Source: an uncultured archaeon (lineage in GTDB: Archaea > Thermoproteota > Nitrososphaeria > Nitrososphaerales > Gagatemarchaeaceae). Taken from it: 64,000 bases of DNA. The notes below the pieces were generated by a model. That model was given only the letters and a program-made list of their open reading frames with translations. It made no database searches and was not told the origin of the DNA. Of this stretch, positions 1,997 through 45,240 are shown piece by piece. Location of the stretch: NCBI GenBank assembly GCA_963817525.1, contig CAWFOU010000007.1, positions 576,001 to 640,000 of the forward strand. The letters run 5' to 3'. Position 1 is the stretch's first letter; each line of letters opens with the position of its first letter. A program made the position numbers and the translations under genes.

Positions 1997-3650
<1,654 letters not shown>

Positions 3651-4415: not shown

Positions 4416-9391
<4,976 letters not shown>

Positions 9392-9511: not shown

Positions 9512-9657
9512 GCGAGAGTAGCTAAGCCTGGTCAACGGCGGCGGGGCCGATTCGGCGCCGATACTCAAGATCAGATGTCGCTCCAGGGCCTACAGCGACG
9601 CAAGGAGAAATCCGCTCGTTTAGGCGTTCGTGGGTTCGAATCCCACCTCTCGCACCA
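9512..9657 (+). tRNA. tRNA-Leu(CAA) with two BHB introns (30/31: 9545-9562; 37/38: 9570-9609); CCA encoded
   Basis: Acceptor GCGAGAG/CTCTCGC-A-CCA; spliced anticodon arm GCGGA-CTCAAGA-TCCGC; long variable arm; T-loop TTCGAAT. Confidence 0.9.
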
Positions 9658-32112: not shown

Positions 32113-32267
32113 TGGTGGGGTCGCCCGGATTTGAACCGGGGGTCTCAAGCGTTCTCGAACGCGCCTTGTTAGGGACGTTCCCGAGGCATCTTCTCTGATG
32201 ATTTGAAGCCTAGACCAGACTAGCCCCAAGTTGAATCGAGTTCAACGTTGGCCTAGCCGACGACCCC
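32113..32267 (-). tRNA. tRNA-Pro(CGG) with three BHB introns (15/16: 32220-32252; 29/30: 32188-32202; 37/38: 32152-32179); CCA encoded
   Basis: Acceptor GGGGTCG/CGACCCC-A-CCA; spliced anticodon arm CAAGC-CTCGGGC-GCTTG; central helices GGCT/GGCT (wobble), CTTC/GAAG, CTCG/CGAG. Confidence 0.87.
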
Positions 32268-36477: not shown

Positions 36478-36609
36478 TCAGGTCTTTGGGCGGCGCAGGA
36501 CCTCGTATTCGTACACGAATATGACCACGAGGCTGACCACGAAGAGCAAAATCATGGCGACGCTGAGGAAGTTGTAGTAGCCGCTGACGTCTAGCACCGG
36601 AATCTGCAT
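36478..36609 (-). CDS. Small single-TM protein (43 aa)
   Basis: One hydrophobic helix with basic tail; TATA-like element upstream. Confidence 0.45.
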   Translation of the reverse strand: MQIPVLDVSGYYNFLSVAMILLFVVSLVVIFVYEYEVLRRPKT

Positions 36610-36732
36610 GTTCCGAGATGGCGGGTGATATTCATATAGAAAAGCATTCTGGATGGCGGCGCACGGCATTATCGGGCGCTTGGATTACCTCCGAAAGGAA
36701 AGATTACATAGCTACTGCGGTCCGTCGAAGTC

Positions 36733-36884
36733 GCCGGGGTAGCATAGCTTGGCCCATTGCGCCGGCTACGCCCAAGCGTGGGCGAGACTCATAATCGGCC
36801 AAGATGTGAAATCCGGAGAGGATAGCGATATCCCCGAAGGTCGCGGGCTCAAAATGCAGCGGCATGAGAATCCCGCCCCCGGTA
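36733..36884 (+). tRNA. Elongator-type tRNA-Met(CAT) with four BHB introns (30/31: 36766-36786; 37/38: 36794-36810; 45/46: 36819-36839; 59/60: 36854-36870)
   Basis: Removing the four inserts gives a 76-nt cloverleaf: GCCGGGG/CCCCGGT-A, CCGGA-CTCATAA-TCCGG, AGGTC, GCGGG-CTCAAAT-CCCGC. Confidence 0.88.
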
Positions 36885-37065
36885 CCTTTTTTGGACTGCC
36901 TTAGCGGAAGGAGGACTTAGTTGTGGTCGTGGAGTGCCTACCGGCCCCGGAGATTCGCAATCGAATTCTCGAGGGTTATGATGTCTGCGCGAAGATTCGG
37001 ACGGTCCAAAGGAAGATTCGAGGAAATTCTTTGCGGTGTGAAAAATCGCTGAAGTTCATTGTAGG

Positions 37066-37139
37066 AGCCGCGATCGGGAATTGAACCCGAGACCTTTACC
37101 TTACCAAGGTAACGCTCTACCAGACTGAGCTATCGCGGC
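37066..37139 (-). tRNA. tRNA-Thr(GGT), no intron
   Basis: GCCGCGA/TCGCGGC-T; TTACC-TTGGTAA-GGTAA; T-loop TTCAATT. Confidence 0.95.
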
Positions 37140-45061: not shown

Positions 45062-45240
45062 GCCGGGGTGGCGGAGTCTGGTTAACGCGCGGGCAGTTCG
45101 CTCCGCTCCAAAAGAGTGCGCGAATCCGCATCTCGAGATCATCCGACTTGACAGCCCGTGACCTAACGGTCATGTGGGTTCAAATCGCGCGGGGAAAGGA
45201 CGTTTTACCTTCCCCGCGGGTGGAAGTCCCACCCCCGGCG
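45062..45240 (+). tRNA. tRNA-Ser(CGA) with three BHB introns (31/32: 45095-45131; 37/38 or 38/39: about 45139-45153; 59/60: 45185-45226)
   Basis: GCCGGGG/CCCCGGC-G; spliced anticodon arm CGGGC-CTCGAGA-GCCCG; variable arm GACC/GGTC; central helices GCGG/CCGC, TCGA/TTGA, TTCA/TGGA. Confidence 0.87.

Follow-up and report, generated by a model that had tools for sequence, protein, structure and literature searches.

A probable tRNA-Met(CAU) gene with four bulge-helix-bulge introns in Nitrososphaerota archaea

Multi-intron tRNA genes in archaea

The number of introns that a single archaeal tRNA gene can carry has been given as three for some time. A 2014 review (PMC4033280) puts the archaeal maximum at 'three introns', and the paper on tRNAscan-SE 2.0 (PMC8450103, 2021) speaks of up to three per archaeal tRNA gene, in the passages of both sources that treat intron number. 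More recently, a bioRxiv preprint of October 2026 (10.64898/2026.10.13.758758) has reported up to five intervening sequences in one Asgard tRNA gene. Here we describe a tRNA-Met(CAU) gene with four introns. It lies in a window of 64,000 nucleotides, the whole stretch of DNA that was analyzed. The window is archaeal, with a 16S rRNA gene at 2072-3569 (- strand) and part of a 23S gene, and has 58.6% G+C overall. A sequence-only reading of this DNA had suggested that four introns may equal or exceed the described maximum. Four does exceed the three stated in PMC4033280 and PMC8450103, but it is no record, given the five reported in the Asgard preprint.

The closest described systems resemble the present gene in different respects. 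The multi-intron tRNA genes of the Thermoproteales (Sugahara et al. 2008, as presented in PMC4033280 and PMC8450103) likewise have short bulge-helix-bulge introns at canonical and non-canonical positions, including introns with the relaxed HBh' motif. They share the link to an alpha2-beta2 endonuclease and the removal of neighboring introns in turn. In contrast, the maximum described for them is three introns per gene, as opposed to four here, and their hosts are hyperthermophilic Crenarchaeota, whereas the 16S rRNA gene of the window has 57.5% G+C and the relatives of the window are Nitrososphaerota, Thaumarchaeota or Nitrososphaerales MAGs. The non-canonical introns of Thaumarchaeota discussed in PMC8450103 come from the same phylum; they also occur in multiple copies and have a consensus of their own that needs a dedicated covariance model. 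However, the main-text passages of that paper state at most three introns per archaeal gene and do not mention a four-intron gene. The Asgard genes have in common with ours that there are more than three intervening sequences per gene and that many are missed by standard annotators, and they sit preferentially at the boundaries of splice motifs. The preprint concerns another phylum, and its text contains neither 'Nitrososphaer*' nor 'Thermoproteota'. It is also a census, whereas the present study follows one orthologous gene across 54 species.

No report of an archaeal four-intron gene was found in the literature on four-intron or on multiple and non-canonical archaeal tRNA introns (Thermoproteales, Thaumarchaeota, Nitrososphaer*), a search that covered the articles themselves. 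Within that literature, this is the first four-intron tRNA gene that we could find for this phylum, and it occurs in at least nine species. The range of multi-intron tRNAs is widened by a four-intron gene from a second, unrelated and environmentally abundant phylum. Moreover, a single orthologous gene with one to four introns in 54 species offers a series in which one can follow how introns are lost and gained, which substrates EndA accepts and in what order splicing proceeds.

Gene structure and splice motifs

The gene occupies positions 36733-36884 of the window on the + strand, the strand of all its parts described below. It is 152 nt long, of which the introns make up 76 nt, exactly half. 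Exon 1 (36733-36765) covers tRNA positions 1-30, namely the 5' acceptor strand, the D arm and the 5' anticodon-stem strand through G30. The short exon 2 (36787-36793; positions 31-37) reads ACTCATA and holds the anticodon CAT, and exon 3 (36811-36818; positions 38-45) is ATCCGGAG. Exon 4 (36840-36853; positions 46-59) provides the variable loop, the 5' T-stem strand and the T loop through A59, with C54 in place of the usual T54. Exon 5 (36871-36884; positions 60-73) comprises the 3' T-stem strand, the 3' acceptor strand, in which U72 faces G1, and A73, after which CCA is not encoded.

With the four introns cut out, a product of 76 nt remains. ARAGORN identifies it as tRNA-Met(cat) and finds 20 of 21 stem pairs, and our own cloverleaf score for it is 30 of 31. 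The conserved T8, A14, G18G19, U33, T-loop and discriminator positions of the cloverleaf are present. According to ARAGORN, the D stem has 4 bp with one T.T mismatch, the anticodon arm is CCGGA-CTCATAA-TCCGG, the T arm is GCGGG-CTCAAAT-CCCGC, and the discriminator base is A73. The product thus has both the CAU anticodon and the A73 expected of an elongator tRNA-Met in the ARAGORN call; A73 matters for methionyl-tRNA synthetase. Archaeal initiator tRNAs typically have an A1:U72 pair and three G-C pairs at 29-31:39-41. These initiator features are absent here, since the first base is G1 instead of A1 and the stem CCGGA/TCCGG lacks three consecutive G-C pairs at 29-31. How the gene is built, how well it is conserved and how its motifs are arranged can be read directly from the DNA; we infer from this that in a Nitrososphaerota (Thaumarchaeota) archaeon the locus very probably serves as the functional gene for elongator tRNA-Met(CAU), and that it would be transcribed and its transcript cleaved and ligated, plausibly in a fixed order. 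Two unusual tRNA traits count against this explanation, the G1.U72 pair and C54.

Both traits have a wider distribution. The G1.U72 wobble (36733 with 36883) occurs in the window and its six closest relatives, and more distant ones have G1-C72. C54 (36848; T loop CTCRAAT) replaces the near-universal T54 in tRNA-Met loci of the Nitrososphaerota type, even in those without the 59/60 intron. Position 54 is A in L048 (loci found in the survey below carry L numbers), and the other tRNAs of the window have T54.

The unspliced gene was called by ARAGORN neither in default nor in intron mode, and the Rfam tRNA model RF00005 did not match here, either at its gathering threshold or with E values up to 10. 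A gene of which half is intron would be expected to escape such a model. The prediction that standard scanners would miss the gene is thereby borne out for ARAGORN in both modes and for the Rfam covariance model. Because two common scanners overlook it, genomes of this kind may appear to lack an elongator tRNA-Met, and the tRNA counts used for grading MAG quality may be too low.

In a bulge-helix-bulge motif, the four exon bases 5' of the 5' bulge pair with the four intron bases 5' of the 3' bulge, each bulge has 3 nt, and the central helix is flanked by helices h and h', a definition restated in the methods of the Asgard preprint (10.64898/2026.10.13.758758). Intron 1 (36766-36786; gene positions 34-54) is 21 nt long, lies at 30/31 and forms an HBh' motif with a complete central helix (CGCC/GGCG, 4/4), a 5-bp inner helix and an outer helix of 1 bp. 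Intron 2 (36794-36810; gene positions 62-78), 17 nt long and at the canonical 37/38 site, has three of four central pairs (CTCA/TGTG, with a U33.U mismatch) and an inner helix of 2 bp. Its outer helix is the anticodon stem, which reaches 5 bp after the removal of introns 1 and 3. Intron 3 (36819-36839; gene positions 87-107) has 21 nt and lies at 45/46; three of its four central pairs form (CCGG/CCGA), the inner helix has 5 bp and a GCGA loop, and the outer helix has 0 bp. Intron 4 (36854-36870; gene positions 122-138), with 17 nt at 59/60, is a strict hBHBh' motif in which the central helix is complete (CTCA/TGAG, 4/4), the inner helix has 3 bp and the outer helix is the 5-bp T stem. The bulge pairs of introns 1 to 4 are GGC/AGA, TAA/AAA, AGA/AGG and AAA/AAT, in each case the sole register that gives both helices. 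All four inserts therefore show the elements of the motif: central pairs at 4/4 (introns 1 and 4) or at the 3/4 of the relaxed class (introns 2 and 3), two 3-nt bulges, and, on one side or both, a flanking helix of no fewer than 2 bp. In the minimum free energy (MFE) fold of the entire gene, the motifs of introns 3 and 4 appear exactly as described.

Intron 3 ends in CCGAAG (36834-36839), which is almost a repeat of CCGGAG, the end of exon 3 (36813-36818); in L047 and L051, the repeat is exact. The near-repeat arises because the central helix CCGG is palindromic and AG is common to both bulges.

Relaxed motifs are common, with 113 candidates in these 152 nt, and therefore the motifs alone prove little; the Asgard preprint (10.64898/2026.10.13.758758) makes the same point. 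We combined the 113 candidates into all 4,976 sets of at most four that leave 74-78 nt and ranked the products by a cloverleaf score that is blind to the anticodon and has a maximum of 31. The exact four-intron solution came first with 30, and the runner-up reached 28. For comparison, 40 windows of 152 nt drawn at random from these 64 kb gave best scores of 13-24. When the introns were shuffled with their boundaries fixed, the observed central and inner helices were matched in 3, 490, 4 and 3 of 20,000 trials for introns 1 to 4, respectively.

Orthologues and alternative readings

We scanned 185,579 species-representative genomes with a pattern consisting of the acceptor start, a gap for the D arm, GCGCCGG, a gap for intron 1, GGYG and CTCATA. 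The scan gave 56 loci, 54 of them usable; a chance match in an Alphaproteobacteria MAG (L001) and a locus cut at a contig end (L006) were dropped before counting. The pattern required intron 1 and its central helix and left introns 2, 3 and 4 free. The presence of intron 1 in 54/54 parsed loci is what the pattern demands, and its central helix in the orthologues is not independent evidence, because the search forced it. Most of the loci belong to Nitrososphaerota, Thaumarchaeota or Nitrososphaerales MAGs, including Candidatus Gagatemarchaeum, and a minority to Thermofilaceae, Asgard archaea (Baldr-, Odin- and Njord-) and Bathyarchaeota.

No gene identical to that of the window is found among the 54 loci. 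The flanks of L015, L020 and L028 are 80-82% identical to the window at the nucleotide level and those of L003, L021 and L037 74-77%, with the same aminotransferase, OB-fold protein, tRNA-Thr, PNPOx-like protein and tRNA-Leu around the gene. The spliced product is identical in the window, L015, L020, L021 and L028, and it differs by one to a few bases in most other loci of the Nitrososphaerota type.

Introns were counted in the 54 loci and the window with the same parser, which allowed up to five per gene. All four introns (30, 37, 45 and 59) are present in the window and in eight loci, L003, L013, L015, L020, L021, L028, L037 and L052; the remaining 46 of the 54 have one to three. The set 30+37+59 occurs in 25 loci, 30+37 in six and 30+37+45 in three, and an intron at 38 appears in the sets 30+38+45 (three loci) and 30+38 (two loci). 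Five further parses were found in one locus each, four of these among the doubtful ones. The doubtful parses number five of 54 (L005, L029, L045, L049 and L056), and L005, L029, L045 and L056 have two or three introns when read by eye. More than four introns were found in no locus, the window included, although the parser permitted five. Nine species have introns at all four of these sites, which shows the four-intron state to be old and maintained rather than a one-off. The 45/46 introns all begin with AG(G)A and end with CCG(G/A)NG or ACGGAA, and they are distributed patchily across D-arm types. We read this as probably one origin followed by several losses.

With ARAGORN, the motif check, the unbiased parse and syntenic orthologues that share the same exons in agreement, the gene identity and the number, positions, lengths and helices of the introns given in the sequence-only reading stand unchanged.

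The gene is far more conserved than its surroundings. Across the seven closest species, one of 76 exon columns varies, as against 95 of 120 in the 5' flank and 116 of 120 in the 3' flank. Variable columns in the introns number 2/21, 0/17, 2/21 and 6/17 for introns 1 to 4. An A/T-rich box, AAAGATTACATA, at 36699-36710 (+ strand; -34 to -23) is invariant in all seven species and is a likely TATA/BRE promoter element; A/T boxes lie at a similar upstream distance at the other five tRNA loci of the window. A TTTTTT run at 36887-36892 (+ strand), two bases past A73, is likely to act as the transcription terminator, and a T-run follows the gene in six of the seven species. Just upstream of the gene lies a 63-aa ORF (36478-36669, - strand), the start region of which (GAAAAGCATTCTGG on the + strand) is kept in the closest relatives; blastn finds it at many loci with 72-80% identity.

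The splice motifs also change in a paired manner in places. The central helix of intron 4 runs across the loci from CTCA/TGAG by way of CTCG/CGAG to TTCG/CGAA. Two of its four pairs change in both partners, C54-G becoming T54-A and A57-T becoming G57-C, and L003 has a G.T intermediate. Intron 3 has a complete central helix (4/4) in L013, L047, L051 and L052. In alignment A1, which comprises the nine genes with four introns, 93.6% of cells pair, compared with 34-53% when the partners are slid. The covariation in A1 is too weak to serve as evidence and was discounted, since a two-sided change is seen in only one of 43 pairs and 311 of 500 shuffles score equally well.

Three other readings of the locus have to be weighed. 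Because the end of intron 3 mimics the end of exon 3, a simple spliced alignment mis-joins at this point and prefers a gene with only three introns, in which a single 38-nt intron (gene positions 64-101) takes in intron 2, exon 3 and most of intron 3. Its only cost in such an alignment is one mismatch. We nevertheless rejected this merged insert, since neither of its two possible registers yields a splice motif (0-1 of 4 central pairs) and it leaves a C27.A43 mismatch in the anticodon stem of the product. Furthermore, orthologues without intron 3 have exon 3 continuous with exon 4. We give almost no credence to three introns. A decaying or non-functional tRNA-like sequence, or a gene from which only some of the inserts are removed, could be suspected on the grounds that two of the four motifs are relaxed and that G1.U72 and C54 are atypical. 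However, U72 is common to all seven closest species and C54 to the loci of the Nitrososphaerota type. Exons vary at 1/76 columns across seven species in which the flanks vary at 79-97%, the promoter box is kept, and all four inserts are retained in eight further species. Decay or incomplete removal is therefore very improbable.

The four-intron structure would be unaffected if the gene encoded tRNA-Ile2, in which the CAU anticodon is modified to agmatidine to read AUA. Archaea have three kinds of CAU tRNA gene, and ARAGORN labels all of them Met. The acceptor stems of archaeal tRNA-Ile2 resemble those of tRNA-Ile1 and are not known to begin with GCCGGGG, as the acceptor stem here does. The same acceptor and anticodon arm is found in the Thermofilaceae, Asgard and Bathyarchaeota loci, as expected of a deeply conserved elongator tRNA-Met. 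A look-up of the published TiaS determinants in the literature did not separate Met from Ile2 for this gene. On balance, an Ile2 identity appears unlikely, and we retain the reading as an elongator tRNA-Met with four introns.

Proposed maturation of the precursor, and other intron-bearing genes

We propose that the elongator tRNA-Met gene is transcribed from the A/T box about 30 nt upstream, which would give a precursor of about 155 nt ending in the T-run. Archaeal EndA would then cut inside both 3-nt bulges of each of the four bulge-helix-bulge motifs, an RNA ligase would join the five exons into the 76-nt tRNA, and CCA would be added afterwards. The archaeal RNA ligase is RtcB. An alpha2-beta2 EndA is reported for Thaumarchaeota in PMC4090602, and PMC5829648 reports that this type of enzyme cuts non-canonical introns. 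A Pfam scan of the 59 ORFs of the 64-kb window found no EndA gene.

The geometry of the motifs makes an ordered removal plausible. Introns 1 (30/31) and 3 (45/46) have relaxed motifs without an outer helix, which would form only while the anticodon stem is open, because their central helices use C25-C28 and C41-G43. These bases are also needed for the G10-C25 pair and the anticodon stem; C40 is mismatched, facing A, in the central helix of intron 3 in the window. Conversely, intron 2 (37/38) would most likely be removed after introns 1 and 3, because its weak core needs the anticodon stem as an outer helix. On the T arm, intron 4 (59/60) has an independent and perfect motif. The precursor could thus display motifs 1, 3 and 4 at the same time, with motif 2 becoming complete only later. 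Nearest-neighbor energies point the same way (-46.4 kcal/mol for the conformer with motifs 1, 3 and 4, as against -37.4 kcal/mol for that with the anticodon stem and motif 2) but leave the splicing order unsettled, because neither conformer is the MFE fold (-64.6 kcal/mol). PMC8450103 notes, where it discusses two- and three-intron genes, that introns lying close together must go in turn, so ordered removal as such is already in print.

The loop of intron 2 contains GGCCAAG (36797-36803, + strand), which is complementary to CTTGGCC in the D loop (36748-36754), and the MFE fold has seven Watson-Crick pairs between the two. For a single gene, a 7-bp duplex is unremarkable, being reached by 8-15% of shuffles. 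We surveyed 48 genes with an intron at 37/38 or 38/39, with seven loci dropped. The longest duplex between the D arm and intron 2 has 10 bp in four genes, 9 in one, 8 in one, 7 in 33, 6 in four and 5 in five. Other lineages pair with different sequences (CCAAGCT/AGCTTGG, CCAGGCT/AGCCTGG and GACCAGG/CCTGGTC). At position 17, T-A is exchanged for C-G in three backgrounds (L009 versus L004 and L053; L019 versus L007 and L048; the window versus L013), and at position 20, C-G becomes T-A in L013, with a T.G wobble in L024 and L036. L047 has an A18-T pair, and a mismatch is found in L041 and L046.

To place these pairs against a background, introns were permuted among the D arms of 20 distinct haplotypes, comprising the loci of the Nitrososphaerota type with L047 and L048; nine loci of other phyla were dropped. 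With relatedness ignored, the summed duplex length was 143 versus 127.9 +/- 3.7, reached in 1 of 5,000 permutations, and the summed energy -297.9 versus -252.2 +/- 10.0, reached in none of 5,000. Again ignoring relatedness, the register of the window type (alignment A4, eight sequences) has 94.6% of cells paired against 4-53% when slid, and the other register (A5, 14 sequences, of which three are shifted by one column) 86.7% against 3-65%. Two of seven pairs in A4 and one pair in A5 change on both sides, and the covariation scores are reached by 16 and 15 of 500 shuffles, respectively. Against the pairing, RNAalifold did not predict the helix from the MAFFT alignment (A3), in which intron 2 is set out of register; instead, it pairs the D loop with CCGGGC at the junction of exon 1 and intron 1. 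Also against it, intron calls made by ARAGORN for tRNA-Thr at the same loci show a complementarity to the D loop of only 3-4 bp. The survey of ARAGORN intron calls across the loci was noisy, many of them being mis-parses of the Met gene itself. A full-text literature search for such a pairing between an intron and a D loop turned up no paper with the phrase 'complementary to the D'.

We regard the pairing of intron 2 with the D loop, with its compensatory changes across lineages, as a moderately supported lead from sequence comparison. It is possible, though we suggest this only tentatively, that intron 2 is not a mere passive insert: its loop would be antisense to the D loop of its own tRNA, would co-evolve with it and would serve as a built-in device for both folding and ordering in a tRNA that is divided into five pieces. 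A precursor helix of 7-10 bp would hold the D arm open and free C25-C28 for the motif of intron 1, and it would block the elbow between the D loop and the T loop until the introns are out. If the pairing is real, a short archaeal tRNA intron would have a structural function in the precursor. A cause at the DNA level, such as templated correction between inverted repeats, and a role in trans of the excised intron are alternatives for the co-change that are compatible with the evidence.

Several other genes of the window carry inserts or have intron-bearing counterparts. The neighboring tRNA-Thr(GGT) gene (37064-37139, - strand) is intronless in the window; in the corresponding tRNA-Thr of L002, L015, L016, L019, L021, L022, L026 and L042, ARAGORN calls an intron of 12-16 nt. 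A second hidden tRNA gene lies at 32113-32267 (- strand). The parser reads it as tRNA-Pro(CGG) interrupted in the D loop, the 5' anticodon-stem strand and the anticodon loop by introns of about 33, 15 and 28 nt, respectively, with a cloverleaf score of 31/31 and an encoded CCA. It is mis-called as tRNA-Val by the intron mode of ARAGORN and missed by Rfam. At 45062-45240 (+ strand), there is a 179-nt class II tRNA gene with G73, a long variable arm and a 42-nt intron at 59/60 with a perfect motif. A further insert of about 52 nt in its anticodon arm may be more than one intron, and the best, incomplete parse gives the loop ATTGACA with anticodon TGA (Ser) and an odd C37. The intron mode of ARAGORN also reports a tRNA-Ser(CGA) at 9512-9657 (+ strand) with a 58-nt intron beside the anticodon, where default ARAGORN and Rfam are silent. 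Finally, the gene for the beta subunit of a 2-oxoacid:ferredoxin oxidoreductase (5314-7395, - strand; TPP_enzyme_C, PFO_beta_C) contains an apparent intein with a LAGLIDADG domain.
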